Shown here: positions 7,401-27,724 of the stretch, piece by piece
How positions within the stretch are numbered: the first letter of the stretch is position 1
Layout: each line of letters opens with the position of its first letter
Source: Thermodesulfobacteriota bacterium
GTDB lineage: Bacteria > Desulfobacterota_D > UBA1144 > Nemesobacterales > CSP1-2
DNA: 64,000 nt
NCBI GenBank assembly: GCA_035559815.1
Contig: DATMAT010000052.1
Span: 12,219-76,218, forward strand
Direction: 5' to 3'
Translations under genes and position numbers: made by a program
Notes under the pieces: model-generated
What the model was told of the DNA's origin: nothing
What the model saw: only the letters and a program-made list of their open reading frames with translations
Database searches by the model: none

Positions 7401-7589
7401 GATGGTGACTGTATCCTCGACCACCTCCGCACTGGCCCCAATGTAAGAAGCGCTGACATTGACGGTAGGAGGCGTGATCTCCGGATAAAGAGCGATGGGC
7501 AATATGGGGATAGTAATGCCACCGGACAGCGTAATGAGAATAGCCAGGACCGAGGCCAACACGGGCCGTTCGATGAAAAAATTAACCAA
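4455..7589 (-). CDS. RND family multidrug efflux transporter permease (HAE1/AcrB-like)
   Basis: 1044 aa, 12-TM architecture with two large periplasmic loops; MVNFFIERPVLASVLAI... start typical of AcrB family. Confidence 0.92.
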   Translation of the reverse strand: MVNFFIERPVLASVLAILITLSGGITIPILPIALYPEITPPTVNVSASYIGASAEVVEDTVTIPIEEQVNGVEGMIYMSSTSSNDGSMSLNVTFDIGYNLDIAAVDVQNRVELAKPRLPQEVSQYGISVTKQSPDLTLAVHIVSPDGSRDSLFLSNYIDIHISDVLKRIPGVGNLTIWGERLYSMRIWLDPDKLASLGLTATDVANAVSDQNQQVAAGAIGQRPIPPGQQFQYTINALGRLSDISDFENIIVRTRPDGSVVRVKDVARVELGAEDYGTDSFLDGKEAIGIGIFQLPGANALDLAKKVRAAMAKLSQNFPDGVEYEVIYDPTQFITESIREVLKTLFQAFVLVFIVVFVFLQNWRATLIPAITIPVSLIGTFALIGALGFSINTLTLFGLVLAIGLVVDDAIVVVENVSRFIEEKNLEPKEAARRAMQEVTGPIVATSLVLMAVFVPVSFMPGITGQLYRQFALTIACSVGISAINALTLSPALCAIFLRRGSERHGWFFTKFNQGFNRFRDKYESWLKEVTKRWKVVLAVFLALLGVTYYLFRIVPGGFIPDEDQGYFIVSIQGPEGSSLERTTRVVNQVEKILSSTPGIDHVVAVSGLNILTQTTDSNAAAMFPVLSPWSKRKSPELQVNAILANVLREFAGISEAVVVAFNPPPIRGISETGGFQFELQDLGNTAGLQGLAELAQEMVVKGNQRPELQTLFSSFEANIPGLYVDLDRTKAKTMGISISDVFDTLQTYLGSLYVNDFNKYGRVYRVFLQAEDGYRTKADDITRLYVRTESGEMVPLSTLVKVTPVVGAETITHYNLYRSAEIDGAAAPGFSSGQAIEAMEELAKEILPAGMGYDWTGIAYQEIQAGNLAPIIFGLALVFVFLFLAALYESWSMPFMVMLAVPLAILGAMIAQWLRGLNNDVYCQIGLVMLIGLASKNAILIVEFAKRRREEGLSIQDSALEAARIRLRPILMTAFAFILGVFPLVVASGAGSNSRHSLGTAVFGGMIVATFLSLIVVPVFYLVIERLRERSVKYGKGESTPGK

Positions 7590-7626
7590 AGGTATATCTC
7601 CTCATGGCAAGTGGATAAGGCGAAAA

Positions 7627-8811
7627 CTAATTGGGTGTCTCCTTTTTCGGTTGCGGAGACGATGCAGGGAGATTGGAATCACCTTTTGAGGAAACGAGCT
7701 TCGGCTGGACAGTAATACCCGGTTTCACCTTCTGCAAGCCCTCGATTATAACCCGCTCCCCCGGCTTTACACCCTTTTCGATTACCCGCATACCTTTATA
7801 GGTTGTTCCCGCTACCACATCCCGGTTCTCAACCCTGTCATCCCTATTCACTATGAGCAAATAAGCCCCACCCTGAGTCTCGCCCACCGCTTGCTCCGGA
7901 ACCAGGAGTGCGTCCGGCTTCATGGTCAGAAGAAGACGAACCTGAACATATTGCCCGGGCAGCAAGCTTTTATCCGGATTGGGGACAACCCCGCGCATAG
8001 ATATTGTGCTTGTGGTGCTTTCTACAGCGTTGTTGACGAAGTCTACGGCCCCTTGGTAAGGGTGGATGCTCTCGTCCGGAAGTACCAATCTGATGGTGAG
8101 CTTTTCCTTTTCCTGCTGCTTCAATATCTCCGGTAAATAGCGGGAGCTCGGGCTGAAATAGACATAAATGGGGTCAAGTTGTACAAGGGTGGCAAGTTCA
8201 GTGTTCTGGCCAGCTCCAACCAGGTTTCCAACATCTACGTATCTTCGTCCTATACGCCCGTCAAATGGGGCATACATCCGGCAGTAACTTAGATTCAACT
8301 CGGCTAGTTTGATAGCGGCGCGGTCAGCTTCTACCGCCGCCTGTAGTTCCTTCACTTGAGTGCTAAACTGGTCAAAGGCGTTACGGGCTATAAACTCTTT
8401 GTCTAAAAGGGGCTTGTATCGCTCTACCTGTTGCCGGGCGTAGGCCAGAGCGGCTTCATCCTTTGCCAACTGGGCCTGGGCATTTTCGAGCTGGGCCTCA
8501 AAGGGACGCGGGTCAATAACAAAGAGCAAATCGCCCTTCTTCACATCCGCCCCATCAACAAATGCACGCTCTTGAAGAAATCCTTCCACCCTGGCCACAA
8601 TATCTACCGTATTTACAGCTTGAAGGGTACCAACATAGTCCAGATAGACCGGAACCGTTTCCTTTACTACCTCAGCTACCGTCACGACGGGCGGAGGAGT
8701 AGTAACCTCCTTCTTACGGTCGCAACCGGAGAGTCCAATTAGCGCTAGGGTGAAAGCCAGAATCGCCAAAAACCGAGTTGTCAAATTTACTTCACTCTCA
8801 GTTCTCATCAT
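7627..8811 (-). CDS. RND efflux periplasmic adaptor (membrane fusion protein, HlyD/AcrA family) lipoprotein; track ORF extends to 8886 but the ATG at 8811 (MMRTESE...LIGLSGC lipobox) is the likely start
   Basis: HlyD-family motifs, signal peptide with LSGC lipobox; 4-bp overlap with upstream OMP gene stop at 8798 when started at 8811. Confidence 0.85.
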   Translation of the reverse strand: MMRTESEVNLTTRFLAILAFTLALIGLSGCDRKKEVTTPPPVVTVAEVVKETVPVYLDYVGTLQAVNTVDIVARVEGFLQERAFVDGADVKKGDLLFVIDPRPFEAQLENAQAQLAKDEAALAYARQQVERYKPLLDKEFIARNAFDQFSTQVKELQAAVEADRAAIKLAELNLSYCRMYAPFDGRIGRRYVDVGNLVGAGQNTELATLVQLDPIYVYFSPSSRYLPEILKQQEKEKLTIRLVLPDESIHPYQGAVDFVNNAVESTTSTISMRGVVPNPDKSLLPGQYVQVRLLLTMKPDALLVPEQAVGETQGGAYLLIVNRDDRVENRDVVAGTTYKGMRVIEKGVKPGERVIIEGLQKVKPGITVQPKLVSSKGDSNLPASSPQPKKETPN

Positions 8812-10294
8812 GCTGATATTTCTCTTCTGCCTCAATTTTTTTAAAAGAGTTGTTAATAGAAGAAGTGACCGGGAGCTCTTTCCCAATTGCGTGTATTAAC
8901 TCTGCGTAAGACCTATGGAGGCTCGTCCTGGCTTGAACCCGTTCTGCTCTGGCCTCGGTGAGCGTACTCTGAGCGTTGAGTAACTCCACTATGTCTCCCA
9001 CCCCGGAACGGTAACGGGCAAGCGAAGCTTCGTATGATTTCGTTGCGCTCTCCAGGAGCACCTCGCTTGCCTCCAGTTGCTCTACCGCAGTTCGGAAATT
9101 GTAATAACCGTTCCAGACCTCAGATATAACCCTTTCCTCTTGAATGGAAAGGGCTGCTTGAGCCGCTTCGAGATTCGCACGGGCCTGACGAACCTGATTA
9201 ATAAGCGAAAAACCCTGAAAAATCGGGAACTGGAGACCGACTAAGAACTGATAGCTAAAGCTATTGTCGTCAACACCGCCCCTTACCACTTCAGGCTCTA
9301 ACAACGCGCTCGCAACTAGCTGGGGCCATTGGGCAGATTCAGCCTGCCTTACTTCAGCCTCTTTTTGAAGCACAACCGACCGGGCAGCAGCAAGGTTCGG
9401 CCGATTTTTCTGAGCCTCTGCAATCAACTCTTCGACGTTTTCAGAGACGGAGTCAAGAGGAAACTCCTTCGGTTCATCCTCCACGTCAAAGGGGGTATTA
9501 GCCGGCCATCCGACTGCGGTTGCTAACTCTCCACGGGATATCTCAATAGCACCTCGGTCAGTCGCTATATCCAGTTGCACCTGGGCTACGGTTGATTTCG
9601 CCTGCAATACATCGACAACCGTTCCTAGCCCTACCTGTAGTCTTAATTCCGCCGCTTGGAGGCTTGTCTCCGCATCTTTCAAACTAGCCAGGTCAGCCTG
9701 TAACTGCGCCTTGTTTCCGATAAGGGTGTAATAAGCCTCCGCCACGTTGCGAAGTACATCCTGTATAGCCTGGTTATGGGTCCAGTTGGCATTATACAGC
9801 GCCTGCTTAGCCGCTTCCACGCCGGCGCTGCGGCCGCCGAAGTCAAGAAGGAGATAGTTAAGCGCTACGCTTGCTGTACCGATAGTCTCGGTAAAGGAGC
9901 TTGACCCTTCGTTCTGACCACCTTTTGCTTCTTCGACCGAGAGAACACCGCTAATATCCGGATAATAGCTACCACGTGCCACAGCCCAGGCTGCAGCAGC
10001 CGCACGCGCCTGTTCCCATGCTTGGCGAGTGGCCGGACTCTGACGTAGTGCCGCGTCAACGAGCTGTGATAGGCTTAACTTCTCTGCAGATGGCTTTAAA
10101 TCAGGCGGTATCGTTGGAAGCCTGTCTGATGACTGCACGCTAGGTAGGTGATTCGGTGGAGGTTGCCATTCTTCTCCCGGATCAGGAGCAGCATATTTCA
10201 TCGGATTTAGTTCTGGCAGATTTTGTACGCATGAAGTGGAAGTGATAATACATAGCAGTAGAGCCGGCGCAAAACAGAAAGAATGTCGCGACAT
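8798..10294 (-). CDS. TolC-family outer membrane efflux protein; likely start at internal ATG 10294 (MSRHSFCFAPALLLCIITSTSC signal peptide) rather than track start 10405
   Basis: Two TolC-like repeat halves, Ala/Gln-rich coiled-coil segments; first gene of OMP-MFP-RND operon. Confidence 0.85.
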   Translation of the reverse strand: MSRHSFCFAPALLLCIITSTSCVQNLPELNPMKYAAPDPGEEWQPPPNHLPSVQSSDRLPTIPPDLKPSAEKLSLSQLVDAALRQSPATRQAWEQARAAAAAWAVARGSYYPDISGVLSVEEAKGGQNEGSSSFTETIGTASVALNYLLLDFGGRSAGVEAAKQALYNANWTHNQAIQDVLRNVAEAYYTLIGNKAQLQADLASLKDAETSLQAAELRLQVGLGTVVDVLQAKSTVAQVQLDIATDRGAIEISRGELATAVGWPANTPFDVEDEPKEFPLDSVSENVEELIAEAQKNRPNLAAARSVVLQKEAEVRQAESAQWPQLVASALLEPEVVRGGVDDNSFSYQFLVGLQFPIFQGFSLINQVRQARANLEAAQAALSIQEERVISEVWNGYYNFRTAVEQLEASEVLLESATKSYEASLARYRSGVGDIVELLNAQSTLTEARAERVQARTSLHRSYAELIHAIGKELPVTSSINNSFKKIEAEEKYQHDEN

Positions 10295-10639
10295 AAAGGA
10301 CCTCGATTGAAATAAACACTTAACATTAGATGTCACACTGCGGGTAAGATAAGCAAAATCAAATTCGTCAGAACTGATACGCTTCAAATTTAAGTCCTTC
10401 CTCAATGCTAAACAGAAGGATCGCCGTCGATTCGATTATCGGATATGCTGACAAAGCTGTAGAGAGAAAATAAAGAACCCATCCTTCAGTTAAGTTATGA
10501 TTATCATTGATTCACATTTTTGTCAACGAAAAATATTGTTACTAAATATCTCCACAATTAAAATTAAATAATAAGCAAACTCAAACTTGTGCGAAATAAG
10601 AGATTGCTTCGCTGAAATTAGAAAGGGATAGAGTTTCTT

Positions 10640-12233: not shown

Positions 12234-12997
12234 TCTTTCTTCACTTCTTCCCAAAGCTCGTCCATTTCTTTTAGATTTAATTCCGACAAGTCTCTTCCCT
12301 TTTCTCGCGCCTTCTCTTCAACCTTGCTGAATCTTTCTATGAACTGGTCCACTGCCCTATGCGCAGTGCTCTCCGAATCCAGCTTTAGATGCCTGGCCAG
12401 GTTTACCAAAGAAAAAATCAAATCTCCCCATTCTTTCTCTATCGAATTTTTCAGGTCAGATTGGATTGCGCTCTCAAGCTCGGCTAACTCCTCTTTTACC
12501 TTTTCAATTACATCCTCCGGCTTTGCCCAATCAAAACCAACCTGGGAGGCTTTCTCCCCAACACGTTGTGCGCGAAGAAGGGCTGGCATAGAGCGGGGTA
12601 TCTGAAGAAGCGTTCTCTTTCTCTCTTTTTCCTTCATCTTCTCCCCATGCCATCTCTTTACCGCCTCCTCCGCATCTTTAGCCTTTTCCTCGCCAAATAC
12701 GTGGGGATGACGCCTGACCAGCTTGTAGTACAGTTGGTCTACTACATCATCAATGTTGAATTTTCCTTCCTCGCTGGATATCTGGGAGGCAAATATAATT
12801 TCGTAAAGAAGGTCTCCAAGCTCTTCCTTAAGCTCTTGGGTGTCGTCTGCTTCAATAGCCTGGATTACCTCATATGCCTCCTCAATAATAAAGGACTTAA
12901 GTGTGTTGAGCGTTTGTTCCCTATCCCAGGGACAGCCCTCCGGGCTTCTTAAGTACTTGGATAACTCCACTACATCTTGAAAACTCCTCTTCTTCAT
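12227..12997 (-). CDS. mazG: Nucleoside triphosphate pyrophosphohydrolase MazG
   Basis: 256 aa, tandem MazG domains with EExxE/DLLY motifs (EEAYEVIQAIE, ELGDLLYEI, EELAELESAIQ). Confidence 0.9.
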   Translation of the reverse strand: MKKRSFQDVVELSKYLRSPEGCPWDREQTLNTLKSFIIEEAYEVIQAIEADDTQELKEELGDLLYEIIFASQISSEEGKFNIDDVVDQLYYKLVRRHPHVFGEEKAKDAEEAVKRWHGEKMKEKERKRTLLQIPRSMPALLRAQRVGEKASQVGFDWAKPEDVIEKVKEELAELESAIQSDLKNSIEKEWGDLIFSLVNLARHLKLDSESTAHRAVDQFIERFSKVEEKAREKGRDLSELNLKEMDELWEEVKKDY

Positions 12998-13036
12998 TTT
13001 CCTTTTCCTTTCATGAATAAAGTGAATATCATCAGT

Positions 13037-13990
13037 TTATAATCTCCCTCTTAGAGTCCTTCCGTTCAAAGAAATACTGACAATGGAATCGCTTCCGTCA
13101 AAGACTATTCTCAAGGGGAAGGGAATTTTATTGGGAATCACGCCGAACCTCAAATCATAAAACTCAACAACGTGCCTCCCACCTTCCTCTTTGTATTCAG
13201 CAACCGGATAGTCGGCAAACCAGAAATACAGTTTAGTCACCTCAAGATTCTTTGCCAATTCTACGAATTGATTATGGTTGGTCTTGGCTATACGCTCAAA
13301 CCCCTCAGGATTTTTTCCAAACATGGAGAGATTCACTTTATAGAAGGCATCTTCAGTCTCTATGACTCCCATCCAGAAAAGCGGCGCCAGAGGCCGGGGA
13401 TACACTGAGGACTTTACAACACTTAGAGATTTATCTTTGGCAAACTCATCTACTTTTCCCGAATTCAGCTCCCTGGAGTAAAAGCACAATATTAGATACA
13501 GGGCCAAATAAGCAAAAATGCCGAAAGAAAACCTATTTGCAAATTCTCTTTTCCTCCGGCACAGAATCAAGCCCAGAATGACCGGAAGGGTGATGAATGG
13601 ATCAAGAATAAATACCAGATTCCAGCTATACCGCTTCATGCTCAACGGGTCAAAGATAACTGTTCCGTAAGAAGTTATGAGGTCAAAGAATATGTGAGAG
13701 TATATTCCCAGGGCGATCATCGCAACTATAAACCAATATTTTTTATAAGAGGAAAAACGATAAATTACTAATGCCAGAATAAAAGCGAATAGCGGAGCAG
13801 CAATCAACGAATGGGTTAATCCTCTATGATAGCGTAGGGAAAACTCAGGGCCCAGGAAGGTAGTCACTATATCTATGTCCGGGAATATGGCGCCTACGGT
13901 GAACGCAATCGTAGCCACCCGCCCTGCTTTCTGATAAAAGCCAGTCTTAGATGATAGCGTCCCAATTAGTCCGTGAGTGATGGTATCCAC
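13037..13990 (-). CDS. Membrane-bound metal-dependent hydrolase (YdjM/DUF457-like) with C-terminal soluble domain; GTG start
   Basis: MDTITHGLIG...HRGLTHSL motif typical of YdjM family; 4-5 TM helices. Confidence 0.55.
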   Translation of the reverse strand: MDTITHGLIGTLSSKTGFYQKAGRVATIAFTVGAIFPDIDIVTTFLGPEFSLRYHRGLTHSLIAAPLFAFILALVIYRFSSYKKYWFIVAMIALGIYSHIFFDLITSYGTVIFDPLSMKRYSWNLVFILDPFITLPVILGLILCRRKREFANRFSFGIFAYLALYLILCFYSRELNSGKVDEFAKDKSLSVVKSSVYPRPLAPLFWMGVIETEDAFYKVNLSMFGKNPEGFERIAKTNHNQFVELAKNLEVTKLYFWFADYPVAEYKEEGGRHVVEFYDLRFGVIPNKIPFPLRIVFDGSDSIVSISLNGRTLRGRL

Positions 13991-16484: not shown

Positions 16485-19400
16485 ATGAACGAAGTAAGAA
16501 ATAAAACAAAGGGAGTAAGTAGAAGGATTACCATATTCCTCTTCGTAATTGCCAAAGCCGCCGCTTTATTCGTGGCTAGTTCTTCCTCAAGCTTTGCAAT
16601 AGAATGCCCGGCGACCTGTCCCGGAACGGGGGTTGCGTGCACTTTTCCCCCATGCTGCTTTGTTTCTCCAGACGGAGTAGCCGAATGTGTAGAGTGCCTA
16701 AGTGACGATGACTGCTCTGAGGGTAACCAGTGCAACGTCGAAGCGCATACATGCACGCGACCGCCCACGTGCAGCAGTAATAGCGACTGCGTAGACCCAG
16801 TCCGCCCAATCTGTGATTCGGGCAATTGCGTGCCGTGCACAAAGGATGCCCAATGCAGCCCGTCAGTCTGCAATGAATCGTCAGGCCAATGCGTACAGTG
16901 TACAGCCGATGCCGAGTGCCCATCAGGCTTAGTTTGTAATGACACATCAAATACATGCGTACAGTGCGAGACTAAGGACAACTGCGCTCCTGACGAATTC
17001 TGTAACCCTGAAAAATTCACATGCGAAAAGCTACCACCTCCGGTGGATTTAACTATTGCCAACATAGAAATCACTCAAGCGATTCAGGACTTCGATAATG
17101 TTGTGCCCCTCGTTCAAGACAAGACCACCTATGTGCGTGTGTACCCCAAAGTGGATATAGCCGAAAGGCGTGTCGAGGCGCAGCTCCGTGGGTTTCGCGA
17201 TGGTATGGAGATTTCCGAGCCCTTAAGGCCAGTTAACCGCTTTGTCACTGTTCATCCAACTGGCGCCAAGCGCGACACGTTGAACGACAGTTTCAACTTC
17301 TGGGTGCCTCCAGCCTGGCGCTCTGGCACCGTGACGTTTCAGGCTGAAATTAACCCTAGCGGGGCGATAATTCCTGTCCCTGAGACAAATACCAGCAACA
17401 ATATTTTTAGGCGCACCCGAACGTTTATAGCAAAACCACCCGTCTGCATAACTATGATCCCAGTGCGTACCCATGGGTCGCTCTACACCGTGAATAGTCC
17501 CGGATTCTGGGGTATAATCAAGCGCTTCGAGAGCCTCTGGCCGGTACCCAAAGTCAACGTCTTTTACCAATCCACCCCGATCTCGAAGCTTGAGCCACCC
17601 TTTTTTAAATTTGTTCCCTATGAACTGCCCAAAAATAGTGCGAGGGTTCTTAATGCCTTGATTCAGCGTCGTTTCTTCAGCAGCGGAGTTGTGTGTCCAT
17701 CGGGGTCCCCATTCCGCACTGTGGGAATGGTCAGTCCGGATACCATTACGGGAGGTGTTGCAGGTGCCGCCTACCATACACACACCGTAGCTTGGGTGCA
17801 GATGGAGCCGTTTGGGGTGTTGTTCAACACGCCTCCTGGTGGGGTGACCATGGCTCATGAACTAGCCCATAACTTCGGGGATAAAAACCGCTGGAGGCAT
17901 GTTCCTTGTCCGCCACCGGGTCAACCGGGCGCACCAGACGACATCAACCCGGACTATCCATATCCTACAGACCAGATTGGACCTGACCGTCCCGATGCCT
18001 TCTGGGGATTCGACCCGATTAGCAAGGCGATTATTTCGCCGAAGCTTGGGAAAGACTTCATGTCCTACTGTCCCCAGGAGTGGGTTTCGGACTACAGTTG
18101 GGAAAACATATTCTTCGAAATCAATCTGCGCACCGTAGCTGCCCGATCTCACGAAACGGGGAATGCGCTGGTAGACCCCCATCAAAATGCCGAAATCCTG
18201 GTGGTGGGCGGAGTCATTGCTCCAGCCACGAATGTTGCGACCTTCGACTACGGCTACCGGCTATCCCAAGACATGGTCAGCGCGGAAACGTTGGAGGAAG
18301 TGCAGCCCGACCAGGATACAACCTCTGACCCTGAGACTACTTACGGACTGGAGTTGTTGGATACCAGTGGTGCTGTGCTCTCCTCACTACCTTTCGAACC
18401 CATAAAGGACACGGCGACTGAAAATGCTGAGCAAGGTTTCTTTCTGACTGTACCCTTCGATTCTAGGACGGCACGGGTGCGTATCACCCGGAACGGCAAA
18501 GAGCTGGGAGGGTTAACTGTCAGCGCGAATGCACCACAGGTTAGACTTCTGCAACCCATCGGTGGCGAGGTGATCACCGATCGCTTGACTATCCGTTGGG
18601 AGGCCAGCGATCAGGATAACGATCCATTGTTCTATACCGTCCAGTACAGCCCGGATTCAGGCGCAAGCTGGCAAACACTGGTCACTCAGACTCCGGAAAC
18701 AACCTTGACCCTAGATGATACCCTTAGTCTACCGGGCAGCGATCAGGCCTTGATCCAAGTAATCGCCAGCGACGGCGTTAACACCGGCTCGGCCACTTCC
18801 GATTCTTTCACCGTCCAGTCCCATGCACCGGTGGTCCACATTGATACTCCAAGCAATCAGGCTATCTTCGCGTTTAACAGTCAAGTCATCTTCACAGGTG
18901 GCGCTAGGGACGCCGAGGACGGTCCACTTGGCGATGAATCGCTGAAATGGCTCTTGAATGGTCAGGTGCTAGGTATCGGTGAGGAAATTGCCTTGGACGA
19001 ATTGGCGCCGGGTGATTATGACATCATGCTAGAAGCAGAGGACAGTGATAATAACAAAGCTGTCGCCAGCGTGACAATTACTATCGTGGATGGCATGCCC
19101 GTCGCCAGTAACGACAGCTATAGCACCCCTGAGAATACTCCACTGACGGTGGACGCGCCGGGCGTTCTGGGCAACGACATTGATGCGGAAGGCGACCCGC
19201 TAAGTGCGATACTGGTCAGCGATGTGAGCAAAGGTACGCTAACGCTCAACGCCGACGGCTCCTTCACCTATACACCTAGTGCTGACTTCAACGGTACAGA
19301 TAGCTTCACATACAAAGCGAATGATAGCACGGCCGACTCCAACGTCGTTACCGTCAGCCTAACGATTGGAATCGTTTCCATCGTGTGTCCAGATTGTATA

Positions 19401-19769
19401 CCACAGATTGTTAACGACCTTGTTACATTTAATCCTATTAAATCAACTTTTAGGACCACCTCTGATACCTCTGGTTGTCCATCCGGGTTTGTTGGGAAAT
19501 TTAGCTTTGAGTCAAGACTTACAAACATAAGCGATAGCTCACTTTCTGACCTTACAGTTCAGGTTGCAGAATTGACGAATGAAAACCTGTTACAGAATGC
19601 CAATGGAGGGCCGGATGGAGTAGGAGCGATATTGACAGTTCCAAGTGTAAGTGCTTATTCAGATGGGATACTTAGCCCGGAAGAATCTGTAGATGTTCCT
19701 TTTGTAATATGTTTAAAGAATAAAAACCCATTCAGGTTCTTTGTGGATGTGTTGGGGATAGTGCAGTAG
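16485..19769 (+). CDS. Giant secreted protein with five CxxCxxDxxC-type Cys-rich repeats, an HExxH zinc-metallopeptidase-like domain, tandem-95/Big_9 (VCBS-like) Ig domains, and a conserved ~120-aa C-terminal module
   Basis: Signal peptide; repeats CVECLSDDDC...CTKDAQC...CETKDNC; HELAHNFG motif; ANDSYSTPENTPLTVDAPGVLGNDIDAEGDPL...FTYTPSADFNGTDSFTY; C-terminus ...FFVDVLGIVQ shared with 22312-24411 protein; RBS GAAGGAGG. Confidence 0.8.
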   Translation: MNEVRNKTKGVSRRITIFLFVIAKAAALFVASSSSSFAIECPATCPGTGVACTFPPCCFVSPDGVAECVECLSDDDCSEGNQCNVEAHTCTRPPTCSSNSDCVDPVRPICDSGNCVPCTKDAQCSPSVCNESSGQCVQCTADAECPSGLVCNDTSNTCVQCETKDNCAPDEFCNPEKFTCEKLPPPVDLTIANIEITQAIQDFDNVVPLVQDKTTYVRVYPKVDIAERRVEAQLRGFRDGMEISEPLRPVNRFVTVHPTGAKRDTLNDSFNFWVPPAWRSGTVTFQAEINPSGAIIPVPETNTSNNIFRRTRTFIAKPPVCITMIPVRTHGSLYTVNSPGFWGIIKRFESLWPVPKVNVFYQSTPISKLEPPFFKFVPYELPKNSARVLNALIQRRFFSSGVVCPSGSPFRTVGMVSPDTITGGVAGAAYHTHTVAWVQMEPFGVLFNTPPGGVTMAHELAHNFGDKNRWRHVPCPPPGQPGAPDDINPDYPYPTDQIGPDRPDAFWGFDPISKAIISPKLGKDFMSYCPQEWVSDYSWENIFFEINLRTVAARSHETGNALVDPHQNAEILVVGGVIAPATNVATFDYGYRLSQDMVSAETLEEVQPDQDTTSDPETTYGLELLDTSGAVLSSLPFEPIKDTATENAEQGFFLTVPFDSRTARVRITRNGKELGGLTVSANAPQVRLLQPIGGEVITDRLTIRWEASDQDNDPLFYTVQYSPDSGASWQTLVTQTPETTLTLDDTLSLPGSDQALIQVIASDGVNTGSATSDSFTVQSHAPVVHIDTPSNQAIFAFNSQVIFTGGARDAEDGPLGDESLKWLLNGQVLGIGEEIALDELAPGDYDIMLEAEDSDNNKAVASVTITIVDGMPVASNDSYSTPENTPLTVDAPGVLGNDIDAEGDPLSAILVSDVSKGTLTLNADGSFTYTPSADFNGTDSFTYKANDSTADSNVVTVSLTIGIVSIVCPDCIPQIVNDLVTFNPIKSTFRTTSDTSGCPSGFVGKFSFESRLTNISDSSLSDLTVQVAELTNENLLQNANGGPDGVGAILTVPSVSAYSDGILSPEESVDVPFVICLKNKNPFRFFVDVLGIVQ

Positions 19770-22201: not shown

Positions 22202-22311
22202 GATGAGCCCGCTATCCGTGTCCTCAAAAAAAGCGGTGCGGCTGAGCTTGGGCACCAGGTTGTAATTCATTAGTTTTTCAAATGTAGTATATGGAACAGG
22301 AGGATGAAGTT

Positions 22312-24411
22312 ATGGGAGCTTGCAAAAATGAAATTGTAAAGTTTTTCTTAGGTTTATTTTTGATTTTTTTTGGATTCGGCGGGCTCACCACAGGTTTTCT
22401 CTTGTCATCAAGTAGTTTTGCTGCCGTTTTTAATGTTATCACCGATGCCGATCTACACGATGCCCTTCTTAAAGCACGGAATAACGGTGAAGCAGATACC
22501 ATAGTTATAAGGGCAGGAGATAGGTTGAACAAGACCCCTTTTAGATACACCGCAGCATCAGGAGAAAATTTCGCTCTCACAATAATGGGAGAAGGTGTAG
22601 GACAAACCCTTGATGGAGAGAGAGCTAGAAAGGTGTTATTGATCGATACCTTTAGTAATCTTGAAGACGATTCTAATGCCCACATAACCATAAAAAATCT
22701 GAGTATAACGAATGGCAGGAGTACTGATGGATTTGGTGGCGGTCTTTTTGTCTGCACCGGTTCTGCAAATGTTACTATTGAGAACTCTACTTTCTTTAAT
22801 AACTCTGCTACTTTTCCAGGAAGCGCCTTTGGAGGGGGAGCCGAGATTGATACTCTTTCAGGGGATGTAACACTAACAAAAAACAGATTTTCAAGTAACT
22901 CTGTGATGTCTTCTTCAGAAAGCGCTTTTGGAGGTGGGATCGATATTCTCACTGAGTCAGGAGATGTAATATTAAAAGATAACACATTTACCGACAACTT
23001 TTCTGCTTCGTCTAACTCTTCCTTTGAATTCTTTACTTCCGGAGGCGGGGCTAATGTTTTTACTAGTCATGGAACTATAACACTAACAAATAACATATTT
23101 ACAAGGAACCGTGCTACTTCTTCTTTAGGAAGCACTTCTGGAGGCGGAGCTTCTGTTAGGACTGATGAAGGAACTATAACACTAACAGTTAACATATTTA
23201 CTAACAACTCTATTAATTCCTCTAAAGGATTCACTCAAGACGCTCAAGGAGGTGGAACCGATGTTTTCACAAATTCGGGGAATGTAACACTAACGAGTAA
23301 TATATTTGTCAGTAACTCCGTTCGTTCTTCTGATTCTTCTACTCCAGACGTTTTTGGAGGTGGGGCTGTGATTGGTGCTGGTTCAGGAACTATAAAACTA
23401 GCAGGAAACACATTTGGCATTAATACTGTTGATTCTTCTAATTCTTCTTCAGTAAACGCCTTTGCAGGCGGGGCTGAGGTTTTCACCGATTCGGGAGGTA
23501 TAACACTAACAAATAATATATTTCACAATAACTCTGCTACCTCTTCATTTATTGCTTTTGGAGGTGGAGCCGATGTCTCCACTGGTTCAGGAACTATAAC
23601 ATTAACAAATAACACTTTGACATTGAATTCTGCTACAGATGGAGGAGGTTTGAATGCAGGTGCCTTTAAGGATACCTCCACTATCAATATCTTTAACAAC
23701 ATCATCAGGGGTAACATAGCCAGAAATGACATCTTTCTAGATGAGGATGGAGACGGGAATGGTACTGCCTCGCCTGTAAATCTCTTTAATAATGATTTCT
23801 TTGCTTGCTTTAGCAGCTTTGCTGATGCAACACCATGCACAAACTTTCCACACATAAATAACGGGAATAATATAATGGCAGACCCTCTATTTGTAGATGC
23901 TGCAAATGGAGACATCCACCTTAAGTCAGGCTCCCTTGCCATAAACAGAGGAGACCCCCTTGCACCAGCTCTTCCTGACACAGACATTGATGGAAACCCC
24001 AGGATTATTGGACCTGCCCCAGACATGGGAGCCGATGAGTTTGTTCTTCCAGAGCTAGTGATTGTTAACAACCTTGTTACATTTGAACCTATCAAATCAA
24101 CATTCAAAACCACTTCTGATACCACTGATTGTCCACCTGGGTTCGTCGGGAAGTTTATGTTTGATGCAATGCTTACAAACACAAGCAGTGAACGACTCTC
24201 TGACCTTATGCTTGTCGAGGTCAAAATATTAACAAATGATAACCTACTACTGAATGCCGATGGAGGGCCTGGGGGAGTGGGAACAACATTAACAATTTTT
24301 TCAAGTGGAGTGTTTAGCCCTGGGGAATCTGTAAGAGTTCCATTCATTATATGCTTAAAAAACAAAAAGAGATTCGGTTTTTTTGTAGATGTATTGGGGA
24401 TAGTGCAGTAA
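22312..24411 (+). CDS. Secreted right-handed beta-helix protein with Chlamydial Pmp-like (GGA[ILV]/FxxN) repeats and the same conserved C-terminal module as the 16485 protein (track start 22291; ATG 22312 follows RBS AGGAGGA)
   Basis: Repeated FGGGA...NNIFT(R/S)N units about every 22 aa; DPLFVDAANGDIHLKSGSLAINRGD...DIDGNPR beta-helix terminal motif; C-term ...FFVDVLGIVQ. Confidence 0.8.
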   Translation: MGACKNEIVKFFLGLFLIFFGFGGLTTGFLLSSSSFAAVFNVITDADLHDALLKARNNGEADTIVIRAGDRLNKTPFRYTAASGENFALTIMGEGVGQTLDGERARKVLLIDTFSNLEDDSNAHITIKNLSITNGRSTDGFGGGLFVCTGSANVTIENSTFFNNSATFPGSAFGGGAEIDTLSGDVTLTKNRFSSNSVMSSSESAFGGGIDILTESGDVILKDNTFTDNFSASSNSSFEFFTSGGGANVFTSHGTITLTNNIFTRNRATSSLGSTSGGGASVRTDEGTITLTVNIFTNNSINSSKGFTQDAQGGGTDVFTNSGNVTLTSNIFVSNSVRSSDSSTPDVFGGGAVIGAGSGTIKLAGNTFGINTVDSSNSSSVNAFAGGAEVFTDSGGITLTNNIFHNNSATSSFIAFGGGADVSTGSGTITLTNNTLTLNSATDGGGLNAGAFKDTSTINIFNNIIRGNIARNDIFLDEDGDGNGTASPVNLFNNDFFACFSSFADATPCTNFPHINNGNNIMADPLFVDAANGDIHLKSGSLAINRGDPLAPALPDTDIDGNPRIIGPAPDMGADEFVLPELVIVNNLVTFEPIKSTFKTTSDTTDCPPGFVGKFMFDAMLTNTSSERLSDLMLVEVKILTNDNLLLNADGGPGGVGTTLTIFSSGVFSPGESVRVPFIICLKNKKRFGFFVDVLGIVQ

Positions 24412-24476
24412 ATGCAGGATACAAGATACAGGATGCAAGATAGTGCATTCATCATGTATCATGTATCAGGAATCAT
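24412..24476. repeat. Degenerate tandem heptanucleotide array (ATGCAGG ATACAAG ATACAGG ATGCAAG ... ATGTATC ATGTATC), about 9 units
   Basis: Read directly; a second array with the same words at 25715-25778. Confidence 0.7.
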
Positions 24477-24494
24477 TTGATTAAGGAGGTAAAA

Positions 24495-24698
24495 ATGTCA
24501 GAGAAAGTAGACGAAGAAAAGGAGCAGGAGGAGAAGTTAGATATTTCTCAAAACAAGAAGCCATTTGCAGAGCCGAAATTAACGTTCATCGAGCCGAAGC
24601 TTACAAAGCATGGGAATGTTACTAAGACCACTACTGGACCTGGTTTCTTTGGCGGGTTTACTCCCCCTCCGGAAGATCAAGAACCTCCTGTAGGATGA
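24495..24698 (+). CDS. Small Cys-free peptide (67 aa), candidate RiPP precursor: acidic/Lys-rich N-terminal part with FAEPKLT/FIEPKLT repeat, Gly/Phe/Pro/Thr-rich C-terminal part
   Basis: MSEKVDEEKEQEEKLDISQNKKPFAEPKLTFIEPKLTKHGNVTKTTTGPGFFGGFTPPPEDQEPPVG; perfect RBS AAGGAGG 5 nt upstream of ATG 24495 (track ORF begins at TTG 24477); immediately upstream of kinase-like and rSAM genes. Confidence 0.6.
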   Translation: MSEKVDEEKEQEEKLDISQNKKPFAEPKLTFIEPKLTKHGNVTKTTTGPGFFGGFTPPPEDQEPPVG

Positions 24699-24711
24699 AA
24701 AATTAACATAA

Positions 24712-25686
24712 ATGTCAATCATAGAGTTTTATTCCATCGTTGATTTAAATGTTCAGATCGAATATGAGAATCAGCAGCTTGCTGAGGAGATAACCAGGGC
24801 ATTTCATGATTACTTCTTCACGACAAAAAACGCTTCAGTTCTCGACTCCTACAATCTAACCTTGAGGTTTAAAAACAATGATTTTTATATTAAAGCACCC
24901 GAAGCGGCTCAGGAAATTTATGCCTCCTCTTGCCTACGTGTTTTTAAGGACGAGAATTTCTATTACTTAATAAGTGGGGATTCTCTATTCCAACTCGATC
25001 TTGGAACTAGCCTAGGAATCGGGTTACTAGATTCTGCTTTCTGGGAAAGACACCCAAGATCCAAACAGGACTTTCTTATGCTTTCCCTGCTCTGGCTCCT
25101 TCGCCAACACGGCGTATATGCGCTACATGCAAACGGTGTAGTGAAGAACGATGTCGGGATTCTTATCGTCGGAGACACTGGAAAGGGTAAGTCAACGACA
25201 GCGCTCAGCCTAATAAGGCAGGGCTGGGGGTATCTATCGGATGATGTCACCCTCATCAGACACACATTAGATGGTATCGAAGCTATAGCATTTTTAAAAG
25301 GGTTTTCATTTGATTCGAGTCTGGTCAATTGCTATCCGGAACTTAATAAACCTTCATCTTTTAATGAACAGAAGAGATTTTTGGATATTAAGCAGATATA
25401 CCCCGGAAGATTTCGACATAGTTGTTTTCCAAAAGCACTGATATTTCCAGAGATAGTATCTAATGACAAGAGTGAATTAATTCCGATTGATAGGACGAAG
25501 GCTCTGGTCCTTTTAGCTGAAAACAGCGGAGGGATAATGGTAGATAAGGAGATAGTAATTAAACAAATGGAGGTTCTTAAAAGACTTGCATATCAGACTT
25601 CGAGTTATAAACTCCTCGCAGGGCGTGATTTGTATGAGGAGTCGGAGAGGATTTCTGAAATTCTTTTAGATTTAGCCACAAATTGA
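24712..25686 (+). CDS. HPr kinase/phosphorylase C-terminal-domain-like P-loop protein (HprK-related kinase)
   Basis: 324 aa; ILIVGDTGKGKSTTALSLIRQGWGYLSDDVTLI matches the HprK Walker A / catalytic region (GDSGxGKSExALELIxRGHRLVADD). Confidence 0.7.
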   Translation: MSIIEFYSIVDLNVQIEYENQQLAEEITRAFHDYFFTTKNASVLDSYNLTLRFKNNDFYIKAPEAAQEIYASSCLRVFKDENFYYLISGDSLFQLDLGTSLGIGLLDSAFWERHPRSKQDFLMLSLLWLLRQHGVYALHANGVVKNDVGILIVGDTGKGKSTTALSLIRQGWGYLSDDVTLIRHTLDGIEAIAFLKGFSFDSSLVNCYPELNKPSSFNEQKRFLDIKQIYPGRFRHSCFPKALIFPEIVSNDKSELIPIDRTKALVLLAENSGGIMVDKEIVIKQMEVLKRLAYQTSSYKLLAGRDLYEESERISEILLDLATN

Positions 25687-25714
25687 CACAAATGAGCACG
25701 AATGGAAATAAATA

Positions 25715-25778
25715 GGATGCAAGATACAAGATGCATGATGCAGGATAAAAAGATCCATCATGTATCATGAATCGTGAG
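25715..25778. repeat. Second degenerate heptanucleotide array (ATGCAAG ATACAAG ATGCATG ATGCAGG ... ATGTATC ATGAATC)
   Basis: Shares words GGATGCAAGATA and CATCATGTATCATG with 24412-24476. Confidence 0.7.
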
Positions 25779-25833
25779 TTGTGCATAATTTATACTGTAA
25801 ATCCGTGTTTATTCGTGGCTACCTAGTAATAAA

Positions 25834-26871
25834 ATGGCAAGGATAGTAATAGAGCTTACAAATCGTTGTAACTTAAGCTGCACGCACTGCTTTGATGGAA
25901 GGCACAGCGCCGACGGTGACCTGAAGATAGAGATTATTGAAAAGATCCTCCTGAATGCTAAGGCTTACGGCTTTGATCATCTCTCATTCACCGGCGGAGA
26001 CCCGACAGTACATCCCAGATTTATAGAAATTCTTAAGATGGTATATGAAGCCGGATACAAATTCAGCTTTGTCACTAACGGTCAGAACTTCACGAAGATT
26101 TATAAAAATATACTCCCCTATCGTAATAAACTTGCAGGGATTACGTTTAGTCTTGATGGCGCCAAAGAAGATACACATGATAGGCTTCGTGGAAGAGGTT
26201 CATATCGCCGTGTAATGAAAGCTATAAGTATTTGTGTGGTGAAGAATATTCCATTCACCTTTAACATGGTAATTACATCCCACAACCGTGGTGAGGTAGA
26301 AGAGATGGCAGAGCTTGCTACAAAGCTAGGAAGCAGGGGTCTGAGGTTCAGCCATCTTCTGCCTACTCCTTTAACCACAGTTCAAAATCTCGGTCTCTCT
26401 CCCGAGGAGCAAAGGGAGGTAGAATCTACAATTTGGCAACTCCAGAAAAACTCTCCCATGCCAATTGTTATGGCGCCTGGGTACTATACTACTGATCTCT
26501 TTCCTTGTGCGCCCCTGCAGATGCAGGAATTTAACATAGACTGGCGGGGTAATGTCACAAAATGCTGTCATCTGTCCAGCCATGGTGGTGACGTGGGAAA
26601 TGAAGATATTATAGGCAGTTTAGCCGAAATGAGTTTCTCTGAGGCTTATGAACGTTTAGTTGAGGCTAACAGGAAGTTCCACAAGGAGAAGCTAGAGCGT
26701 CACGGTGGTGGTGATTTTAAGGACTTAGATTATTTCCCATGCTGGTACTGCGAGAATTATTTCAAGAAAGTAGATTGGCTTCGGAAGTTTCCTAAAAGCC
26801 CCTGGTCTGGAGAGGTTTGGAATAATTTAAAGCAAACTTTGCCGCGAATGGACACAGATAAACACGAATAA
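25834..26871 (+). CDS. Radical SAM enzyme with C-terminal SPASM/twitch-type auxiliary cluster domain; no N-terminal RRE/leader-binding extension
   Basis: CNLSCTHC (CxxxCxxC) at residues 11-18; C-terminal Cys set C..C.P....CC...C...C..C (CAPLQ...KCCHLSS...YFPCWYCENY); 345 aa. Confidence 0.85.
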   Translation: MARIVIELTNRCNLSCTHCFDGRHSADGDLKIEIIEKILLNAKAYGFDHLSFTGGDPTVHPRFIEILKMVYEAGYKFSFVTNGQNFTKIYKNILPYRNKLAGITFSLDGAKEDTHDRLRGRGSYRRVMKAISICVVKNIPFTFNMVITSHNRGEVEEMAELATKLGSRGLRFSHLLPTPLTTVQNLGLSPEEQREVESTIWQLQKNSPMPIVMAPGYYTTDLFPCAPLQMQEFNIDWRGNVTKCCHLSSHGGDVGNEDIIGSLAEMSFSEAYERLVEANRKFHKEKLERHGGGDFKDLDYFPCWYCENYFKKVDWLRKFPKSPWSGEVWNNLKQTLPRMDTDKHE

Positions 26872-26897
26872 GATTTGTGTAAATTCGTGTTGACTTG

Positions 26898-27617
26898 TCA
26901 TGCAAGAAAATTCACTATTCCATTATCCAATCCATAAGTTGCTCCTACAACCTTCAGCTTGCCCTCTTTTATGCGCTTAGCTAAAATAGGTTCGGAGTTT
27001 TTCAGTTGCCCCACCACCATCTCCACATTCGCTTTGATTGAATTATTCAAAATATCCCCGGGTAAATGTTTAACGCTTTCGACCGCCGGCTTTATTCTAT
27101 CGGCAATGGCCTCGATTTGCCCGGGCAGTTGGCCCCCTTTTTCTACGATTTCAACTGTCGCTTTTACCGCCCCGCATCTTTGATGACCTAGCACCACGAT
27201 AAGCGGGACGCCCAATTCTGCAACAGCGTACTCTATGCTGCCCTGAACCGCGCTGTCCACGATATTACCGGCCACGCGCACCACAAATAGGTCACCCAAC
27301 CCCTGGTCAAAAATAACCTCGGGCGGCACGCGCGAGTCCGAGCACCCCAGAACCACGGCGATGGGTTTCTGCCCTGAAGCTACTTCAATCCGCCGCTCTT
27401 CCGTCTGATGGGGATGGCCAGGTCTTCCAGACGCGTAAAGTTTATTCCCCTCGATCAATCTTTGGAGAGCTTCATCGCCGTTGATAGTAGGATTATTTTG
27501 GCTGGCTTTAGCAACAAACGCTAGAGTATGCATCAAATCAATGTATGCTACTCCTATAGCAGTTAGTCCAGATAACTTTAACAACTCTAGGCGTGTGAAT
27601 TTTGAATTAAATGGCAT
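26898..27617 (-). CDS. Beta-class carbonic anhydrase with N-terminal signal/Tat-like peptide (likely start at ATG 27617, RBS GGAGGT; track ORF to 27662)
   Basis: CSDSRV, HQRCGA zinc-ligand motifs (Cys-x-Asp-x-Arg ... His-x-x-Cys). Confidence 0.85.
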   Translation of the reverse strand: MPFNSKFTRLELLKLSGLTAIGVAYIDLMHTLAFVAKASQNNPTINGDEALQRLIEGNKLYASGRPGHPHQTEERRIEVASGQKPIAVVLGCSDSRVPPEVIFDQGLGDLFVVRVAGNIVDSAVQGSIEYAVAELGVPLIVVLGHQRCGAVKATVEIVEKGGQLPGQIEAIADRIKPAVESVKHLPGDILNNSIKANVEMVVGQLKNSEPILAKRIKEGKLKVVGATYGLDNGIVNFLA

Positions 27618-27724
27618 ATCGTTACCTCCACTGTTAATTACGATTAAACACAGTTTAGCCATTTTATCATAAACTTAATCCTTTTGTTCCAGAAGATTTC
27701 TTTTATTCCTCAACTGTGAGCATT

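Follow-up and report, generated by a model that had tools for sequence, protein, structure and literature searches.

The stretch of DNA analyzed here (the window) is 64,000 nucleotides of contig DATMAT010000052.1 from a Thermodesulfobacteriota bacterium. There is a cassette of three genes in the window that encode a short peptide, a kinase-like protein, and a radical S-adenosylmethionine (rSAM) enzyme. Related genomes carry the same genes at the head of a longer operon. The trio is probably the proximal part of this conserved operon, which is of the type that makes a peptide synthesized by the ribosome and modified after translation (RiPP), and it appears to have been truncated in this lineage. 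The features of the cassette are as follows.

The three genes and their proteins

24495 to 24698, + strand: precursor peptide gene (VNN20_13320), ATG to TGA, 67 aa, identified by its open reading frame (ORF), ribosome-binding site, and homologues
24564 to 24605, + strand: tandem FxEPKLT heptads, FAEPKLT (residues 24-30) and FIEPKLT (residues 31-37)
Residues 48-67, + strand: predicted peptide core, GPGFFGGFTPPPEDQEPPVG, from the cleavage prediction on the lasso motif
24645 to 24665, + strand: core motif FFGGF-T-P (residues 51-57), conserved in the peptide alignment A5
24712 to 25686, + strand: P-loop protein with an HPr-kinase/PEPCK fold (HWP93168), Pfam ScmC family, 324 aa, 13 nt after the peptide gene
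25834 to 26871, + strand: rSAM peptide-maturase-like enzyme (HWP93169), 345 aa, 147 nt after the kinase gene

A first-pass annotation, made from the letters of the window, had described a compact cassette in which two genes follow the peptide gene within 15 bp and about 150 bp. The three genes lie in one direction, with gaps of 13 nt and 147 nt. It had also described a short ORF with a perfect ribosome-binding site and a duplicated FAEPKLT/FIEPKLT heptad, and a peptide with a Gly/Phe/Pro/Thr-rich C-terminal half that lacks Cys and Trp. All of this was found in the sequence. The ribosome-binding site, AAGGAGG, is at 24483-24489, 5 nt ahead of the ATG. A longer form that would start with TTG at 24477 is not used, because the homologues begin with MSEK and NCBI annotates the 67-aa form. 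The C-terminal half is TTTGPGFFGGFTPPPEDQEPPVG.

The second heptad is the start of a lasso-type recognition motif, F31xxP34xL36xxxG40x5T46, which is followed by T47. Based on this motif, cleavage is predicted after Thr46-Thr47, and residues 1-47 would be the leader. In alignment A5, no variation is seen at P27, L29, F31, P34, L36, T37, K38, G40, or T46. In the core, F51, F52, and F55 are invariant, and G53 and P57 are at least 90% conserved. FFGGF-T-P is presumed to be the site of modification by the rSAM enzyme, with the hydroxyl of Thr56 as a candidate kinase target. The window peptide ends in ...PPVG, and its 10-residue Pro/acid-rich extension belongs to the longest class among the homologues. 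In NCBIfam its sole match is a weak one, in which the lasso_cyano model covers residues 30-46. The scores of the lasso leader models of NCBIfam (16-23 bits) are below the respective cutoffs of 19-33.

A search of 5.8 billion proteins identified homologues of the peptide in 268 clusters, so the ORF is conserved and the first-pass proposal holds on this point. Every cluster is labeled hypothetical and no Pfam domain was found on any. Motifs were counted in the best 120 of the 268 clusters. The lasso leader motif [FWY]xxPxLx3Gx5Tx, with Thr at -2, is present in the window peptide and in 118 of the 120; it is a textbook motif that the first-pass annotation had missed. The PxL unit is duplicated in all 120. 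The predicted cores are mostly 8-10 residues long, and 107 of 118 contain FFGxF. The residue that follows the third core Phe is T in 58 peptides and S in 38. The next residue is Pro in 102/118 cores, and 66 of 117 peptides end exactly at this Pro. A short ORF, a conserved leader and core, and synteny with enzymes across taxa are all features of a RiPP precursor, and the peptide is a putative one. In the Pyrinomonadaceae loci L048, L049, and L054-L057, the position immediately before the kinase gene is held by a sister precursor family, ...KKAFVEPAISVPVDVLEATTFFQAATSGATN. These sister peptides keep FxEP and FF and have a single recognition unit.

The second protein has the HprK catalytic signature that was first reported, GDTGKGKST ... 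LSDD. The catalytic set consists of H139, K160 in GDTGKGKST, and D177-D178 in LSDD. H139, G154, G159, K160, D177, and D178 are invariant in 22 kinase homologues. Precomputed annotation places the protein in Pfam PF27840 (named ScmC). The match to Pfam Hpr_kinase_C is borderline (32.9 bits vs a cutoff of 33.3), and the NCBIfam matches to HprK_rel_A, HprK_rel_B, and ScmC are weak. The family profile aligns the invariant residues with the catalytic core of solved HprK/P structures. Both fold and profile match HprK, and the N-terminal domain is PEPCK-like and not a RiPP recognition element (RRE). There are HprK homologues that act on lasso peptide precursors. In PadeK, ThcoK, and PsmK, the His-Lys-Asp-Asp set was found to be essential by mutagenesis, and these enzymes phosphorylate the C-terminal Ser of the linear precursor (PMC9266682; PMC6993621). 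PsmN, an uncharacterised nucleotidyltransferase-like protein, is needed for addition of a hexose to the phosphate (PMC9266682; PMC6993621). The window protein shares the HprK-like fold and the His-Lys-Asp-Asp set with these kinases.

The third protein has an rSAM core with a TIM barrel and the cluster motif C12xxxC16xxC19. The motif had been noticed in the first pass and was placed at residues 11-18; its correct position is residues 12-19. A C-terminal Cys cluster is also present as described, and it is not that of a canonical SPASM domain. There are five invariant Cys, C225, C244, C245, C303, and C306 (Cx13Gx4CC...Cx2C), where a full SPASM domain has seven Cys and two auxiliary clusters, and the Pfam SPASM model (PF13186) gives 18.3 bits, under its cutoff of 21.5. 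All eight functional Cys are invariant in both homologue sets (39 and 30 sequences). Judging from the Cys pattern, the auxiliary domain looks like a single-cluster Twitch-like or partial SPASM domain and not a canonical 7-Cys SPASM domain, an assignment for which we presume that what is generally known of BtrN and SkfB applies here. The enzyme gives 88.5 bits on PF04055. The best sequence match in the PDB is PqqE, and the AlphaFold2 (AF2) model (pLDDT 87) is nearest to the folds of SuiB, BlsE, anaerobic sulfatase maturase (anSME), SkfB, PqqE, ChlB, and CteB. An RRE fused to the enzyme was ruled out, since CxxxCxxC begins as early as residue 12 and the only parts of the fold are the core and the Twitch-like domain. 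Identity as an anSME, a possibility raised in the first pass, was ruled out as well. No anSME or other NCBIfam equivalog threshold was reached, anSME was not among the top NCBIfam matches, and the anSME match in the PDB (E 3e-5) covers the rSAM core only. No sulfatase gene was seen among the conserved neighbours of the cassette or the scanned neighbour proteins.

The operon in related genomes and its probable truncation in the window

A total of 77 full-length kinase homologues were identified, and a scan of one genome per species gave 79 kinase loci. The gene counts given here are for 30 peptide-bearing loci. The peptide, kinase, and rSAM genes are collinear in 28 of the 30, and the co-occurrence that the first-pass proposal requires is found in many genomes. 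The carriers represent many phyla, including Planctomycetota, Nitrospirota, Chloroflexota, Acidobacteriota, and Thermodesulfobacteriota. By tblastn, a collinear trio is present in Scalindua, Kuenenia, Brocadia, Loosdrechtia, Nitrospira, Thermodesulfovibrionia, Ignavibacteriales, Chloroflexia, Dehalococcoidia, Bryobacteraceae, Acidimicrobiia, and Novipirellula.

Clustering of the neighbouring ORFs identified three further conserved downstream genes. In most cases the genes are arranged as peptide, kinase, rSAM, PqqD, lasso-B2 protease, and NTP_transf_5. The kinase is present in 30 loci, the rSAM enzyme in 28, PqqD in 25, secreted proteins with a shared C-terminal domain (CTD) in 20, B2 in 19, and the nucleotidyltransferase (NTase) in 17. 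The PqqD of the relatives gives 66 bits on PF05402. Its top matches are lasso PqqD models, and it also weakly matches ScmD, geo_PqqD, and PqqD_rel_X. The protease gives 43 bits on Transglut_core3 and 50.4 on NCBIfam lasso_biosyn_B2, above the cutoff of 33. The nucleotidyltransferase-like protein of about 430 aa gives 205 bits on NTP_transf_5. The operon is a real and conserved system of the RiPP type that joins a lasso-type leader, B1 (the PqqD-type RRE), B2, a kinase, and an NTase with an rSAM enzyme and has no cyclase.

The window copy stops after the rSAM gene. The two features at this end are as follows.

26836 to 26898, no strand: inferred deletion or rearrangement breakpoint, from the DNA alignment with loci L162 and L163 and inverted repeats I2-I4; it holds the ACACGAAT inverted repeat (26854-26869 / 26883-26898)
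26898 to 27662, - strand: convergent carbonic anhydrase gene (Pro_CA), with its 3' end 26 nt after the rSAM stop codon

A tblastn search of the 64-kb window with all family members gave no match to PqqD, B2, or NTase below E 0.01. None was found in the flanks sampled beyond the window from other assemblies, and the metagenome-assembled genome (MAG) is incomplete. The nearest relatives by rSAM sequence are L162 and L163, which share a 90% cluster with the window enzyme, together with L087, L088, and L089 (76-83% identical). All relatives at 76-90% rSAM identity have PqqD next, starting no more than about 150 nt from the rSAM stop codon, and usually B2 and NTase after it. DNA homology with L162 and L163 runs through ...GGTTTGGAATAA.. 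and ends about 35 nt ahead of the rSAM stop codon in the window. The remaining tail, QTLPRMDTDKHE, makes up the last ~12 codons, is specific to this lineage, and is disordered in the AF2 model. Inverted repeats of the ACACGAAT type flank the rSAM gene (25801-25817, 26853-26869, and 26883-26898; also 25689-25707) and overlap its lineage-specific 3' end at the breakpoint. Because the nearest relatives keep PqqD and the homology stops inside the 3' end of the rSAM gene, we infer from sequence comparison that PqqD, B2, and NTase were lost in the window lineage through a deletion or rearrangement. The missing RRE is a lineage-specific loss. The first-pass annotation was correct in that the cassette is RiPP-like, and the trio is found together in many genomes. 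It had also taken the lack of an RRE/PqqD and of a lasso protease as a trait of the system, which does not extend to the family, in which 25/30 loci have PqqD and 19/30 have B2.

The trio might also be a self-sufficient modification or small-protein phosphorylation system that is independent of an RRE by design, and this was the suggestion of the first pass. It does not appear probable. All three genes are intact with all of their catalytic residues, a Brocadia locus (L008) likewise has no PqqD directly after its rSAM gene, and in vitro, B1 is not required for lasso kinases to act on precursors (PMC9266682). However, the only complete exceptions to PqqD are the window and L008, and the latter has a second cassette downstream; the closest relatives keep PqqD, and the break in homology is inside the rSAM gene itself. 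In addition, the kinase has a PEPCK-like N-terminal domain and the rSAM enzyme has no N-terminal RRE. With no RRE in either enzyme, the trio has no predicted reader for the conserved leader. For phosphorylation of a small protein, nothing specific was found except the intact kinase catalytic residues.

A truncated copy of the operon either relies on gene copies elsewhere in the genome or is decaying. That the window copy lost PqqD, B2, and NTase and has since been decaying into a remnant with no function is possible, though rather doubtful; its ancestry would be compatible with the truncated operon proposed above. The breakpoint at about 26836, the unique and disordered rSAM tail beyond it, and the missing genes in the 64 kb and the sampled flanks are all consistent with decay. 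Other states of decay were also seen, with an rSAM remnant only in L083, no rSAM gene in L014, and split kinases in L015 and L022. Against this, the window has three full-length ORFs in which every invariant residue is kept, and the peptide has a strong ribosome-binding site and a complete motif. A second cassette elsewhere, as in L008, could supply the missing parts, and the MAG is incomplete. Tandem precursors or whole cassettes are present in L008 (1958-4702 and 10287-11264), L001 (6225-6709), and L006 (7564-7962), and therefore a cassette without PqqD could be served in trans.

Other arrangements were seen among the relatives. Toxin-antitoxin modules (MNT/HepT or PhdYeFM/ParE) lie between the kinase and rSAM genes in L080 (3976-4787), L081 (3044-3648), L088 (557-1161), L089, and L090, and this spacer appears to be an insertion hot spot. 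L012 has a second, divergent kinase-like paralogue (12482-13444, - strand) with a degenerate P-loop, SASDADKS, which adjoins an inverted NTase gene; the paralogue may be an inactive scaffold. L009, a 2-kb contig that was binned in a Methanophagaceae archaeon MAG, carries a CTD protein, the peptide, and the kinase. Its archaeal assignment is due to either horizontal transfer or a binning error.

Relation to known systems and the predicted product

Paeninodin/pseudomycoidin-type lasso clusters consist of A, C, B1, B2, and D with a kinase K and a nucleotidyltransferase-like N. The operon shares several parts with them, including a YxxPxLx3Gx5Tx leader in which Thr is at -2, a B1 that is a discrete protein of the PqqD type, a transglutaminase-like B2 above the NCBIfam lasso_biosyn_B2 cutoff, an HprK-family kinase with His-Lys-Asp-Asp, and an uncharacterised nucleotidyltransferase-like gene (PMC6993621; PMC9266682). 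Cleavage by B2 needs a leader-bound RRE and Thr at -2 (PMC10885120). B1 and B2 are absent from the window copy, as is N, and B1 and B2 are present in its relatives. Unlike in the lasso clusters, the place of the cyclase is taken by the rSAM enzyme, an ABC exporter is absent in the window scans and the conserved neighbours, and the core does not end in Ser. No lasso cyclase of the Asn-synthetase-like type was found in the conserved neighbours of the 79 loci, in the 10 large window ORFs that were scanned, or among the neighbours of the cassette. Asp or Glu is at core positions 7-9 in just 7 of 118 cores, and 92/118 have no acid. Positions 7-9 of the window core, GPGFFGGFT..., are G, F, and T. 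A true lasso peptide was ruled out, since both the cyclase and the acid that would close the ring are missing. The family is lasso-derived and yet unable to make a lasso. The earlier view that the locus fits neither the sacti-, ranthi-, and streptide classes nor a true lasso is supported.

In the relatives, the complete operon encodes one or more CTD secreted proteins, a peptide with a lasso-type leader (two tandem FxEPKLT units, Gly, and Thr at -2) and a core of the form x(1-6)-GFFGxF(S/T)P, a kinase of the HprK/PEPCK fold, and an rSAM enzyme with one Twitch-like domain. These are joined by PqqD as an RRE chaperone, a Cys protease of the lasso-B2 type, and an NTP_transf_5 protein. The following steps are predicted, with dependence on PqqD. 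PqqD would bind the FxxPxL leader and present the peptide. The rSAM enzyme could then abstract a hydrogen atom within FFGxF, which would lead to a cross-link or other radical change involving Phe. The kinase would phosphorylate a Ser or Thr hydroxyl of the core on the linear precursor, as PadeK, ThcoK, and PsmK do. The NTP_transf_5 protein may elaborate the phosphate, by analogy with PsmN. Finally, PqqD and B2 would cut after Thr(-2)-x and leave a modified peptide of about 8-10 residues.

Several points weigh against this scheme. Lasso kinases target a C-terminal Ser, and this is absent from these peptides; the window peptide ends in ...PPVG and the family mostly in ...F(S/T)P. Ser or Thr does not follow the third Phe in every core; Val is there in 8, Pro in 4, and Asp in 3. 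All cores but one (P0176) have some Ser or Thr within the motif. The kinase target is therefore uncertain. The rSAM enzyme is below every curated family threshold, so its reaction is not transferable by homology. The analogy with PsmN presumes that PsmN belongs to NTP_transf_5. The core is almost invariant across phyla, unlike that of antimicrobial RiPPs. No exporter or immunity gene is conserved among the neighbour clusters of the kinase loci, which is unusual for a secreted RiPP. In the open full-text literature, no experiment on any family member was found.

A few of these points would fit a different product, an intracellular peptide-derived cofactor or small effector that is made by an rSAM enzyme and PqqD in the manner of pyrroloquinoline quinone (PQQ) or mycofactocin. 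Such a product is considered unlikely here. PqqE with PqqD and MftC with MftB also combine an rSAM/SPASM enzyme and a discrete PqqD-type chaperone on a short peptide. PqqE is the best PDB sequence match of the window enzyme, mycofactocin and PqqE models are among its top NCBIfam matches, PqqD is a separate protein, and there is no conserved exporter or immunity gene. A short aromatic core that is nearly invariant across phyla would also be expected of a molecule with a fixed partner. However, the cofactor-family scores are far below the cutoffs (68 vs 381 for PqqE and 87 vs 265 for mycofactocin), there are five and not at least seven auxiliary Cys, the precursor is unrelated, and a kinase, B2, and NTase are present. 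There is no conserved oxidoreductase partner in the loci, and the tight linkage is to secreted proteins. Apart from this family, secreted lasso peptides are the only known setting for a B2, kinase, and NTase set (PMC6993621, PMC10885120).

Other systems have a similar list of parts. SynChlorMet (ScmC/ScmD/ScmE/ScmF), GeoRSP, and HPr-rel-A are NCBIfam sets that include HprK-related, PqqD-like, and rSAM/SPASM proteins, and the window rSAM enzyme weakly matches ScmF, ScmE, and GeoRSP_rSAM. Every score is far below the curated cutoff (ScmC, 23.9 vs 125; ScmF, 87.1 vs 400; ScmE, 70.1 vs 400; HprK_rel_A, 43 vs 200), and because of this the cassette is a distinct system. Membership in SynChlorMet, GeoRSP, HPr-rel-A, PQQ, mycofactocin, or anSME systems was ruled out on these scores. 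To our knowledge, SynChlorMet, GeoRSP, and HPr-rel-A are also uncharacterised, and we know of no lasso-type leader, B2 protease, or CTD link described for them. The RRE-Finder paper reports discrete lasso-type RREs beside rSAM genes with no cyclase, which it left unresolved (PMC7470986). No description of the peptide family or the operon was found in the open full-text literature, Pfam, or NCBIfam, which was the scope of the search; subscription literature was outside it.

If the predicted mechanism is true, a lasso leader/B1/B2 module and a kinase/NTase pair were recombined with an rSAM enzyme in place of the cyclase, and the product would be a short Phe-rich peptide. The carriers are environmentally important and mostly uncultured, and include the anammox bacteria Kuenenia, Brocadia, and Scalindua as well as Nitrospira, Thermodesulfovibrionia, and Chloroflexota. 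For genome mining, a lasso-type B1 and B2 with no cyclase need not be a false positive, and a cassette that seems minimal can be the product of a deletion and not a new architecture.

Linked secreted proteins and other features of the window

Two secreted proteins are encoded upstream of the cassette.

22291 to 24411, + strand: secreted beta-helix/choice-of-anchor-Q protein (HWP93166), 706 aa, by Pfam and NCBIfam; CTD at residues ~578-706 (23998-24408)
16485 to 19769, + strand: second secreted protein, with cadherin/Big domains, 1094 aa; CTD at residues ~978-1094 (19365-19766)

The HWP93166 gene ends 83 nt ahead of the peptide start codon. The proteins encoded upstream of the peptide vary among the loci (beta-helix/choice-of-anchor Q or cadherin/Big; 123 to 1460 aa) and share only the last ~125 residues. 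This CTD has two conserved Cys and ends in ...F.F.VDVLG. It is in the position where choice-of-anchor proteins carry an anchor or sorting module. No match to the CTD was found in Pfam or NCBIfam at E up to 10. There are 973 representative homologues, in which the domain is almost always C-terminal.

With a hidden Markov model, the CTD was detected in 20 of 28 peptide loci. Kinase loci without the peptide gave no match, and neither did the rest of the window. The reciprocal test used the CTD alignment A4 as the query, and 71 metagenome loci were fetched. Of the 26 loci with at least 1.5 kb past the last CTD gene, 16 carry the peptide and the enzymes, and 2 more carry the NTase. The CTD is a new, undescribed domain, and its linkage to the cassette is tight whichever of the two is used as the starting point. 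It was seen in loci L002-L025, L080-L081, and L091-L161.

The near-invariant core and the reciprocal linkage argue for a conserved physiological role and not for an arms-race antibiotic. We tentatively suggest that the cassette and the CTD proteins are one system, in which a GFFGxF(S/T)P peptide modified by the rSAM enzyme and the kinase would act with the CTD proteins and lasso-derived machinery would have a conserved function at the cell surface. Toward the CTD, the peptide might serve as a ligand, as an anchor or adaptor, or as a maturation factor.

It is much harder to favor a scheme in which the CTD proteins are themselves the true or additional substrates, modified in the cytoplasm before export as sulfatases are by anSME, with the peptide as an accessory or regulator. 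The linkage in both directions would agree with it, as would the position of a CTD gene between rSAM and PqqD in L024 and L025. There is also a faint likeness of motifs between the peptide (DatKiT..GFFGxF) and the CTD (Dtt.cp.GfvGkF). However, this likeness is not significant (hhalign probability 1%, E 0.056), and homology of peptide and CTD was rejected on this basis; GFVGKF is not conserved across the CTDs. The peptide has the full set of RiPP precursor features, with a leader, Thr at -2, and cognate B1 and B2, and the rSAM enzyme is far below the anSME threshold. A resemblance of FSSGVFSPGES in the window CTD to the core was also considered. It is not conserved in other CTDs and was taken as a coincidence.

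Two further features of the cassette are repeats that can form hairpins.

24412 to 24470, + strand: imperfect palindrome forming a stable hairpin (repeat D1), directly upstream of the peptide gene; free energy -23.4 kcal/mol, z -4.3
25713 to 25775, + strand: second copy of the hairpin (repeat D2), in the kinase-rSAM spacer; free energy -25.4 kcal/mol, z -3.9

The 14-mer at the hairpin core occurs at just these two sites in the 64 kb, where 0.32 would be expected. The element is absent from the closest relative, L001. The hairpins are possibly involved in RNA stability or regulation, or are an element of the repetitive extragenic palindromic (REP) or miniature inverted-repeat transposable element (MITE) kind. 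Scans of the cassette for sigma-70 promoters and intrinsic terminators gave no more sites than shuffled sequences. A putative efflux operon (4455-10405, - strand) lies about 14 kb upstream of the cassette. It is probably unrelated, because it is not conserved with the cassette elsewhere. A domain scan confirmed HlyD and OEP in it, and an adjoining ORF of 1044 aa (4455-7589) is presumed to encode a resistance-nodulation-division (RND) pump.

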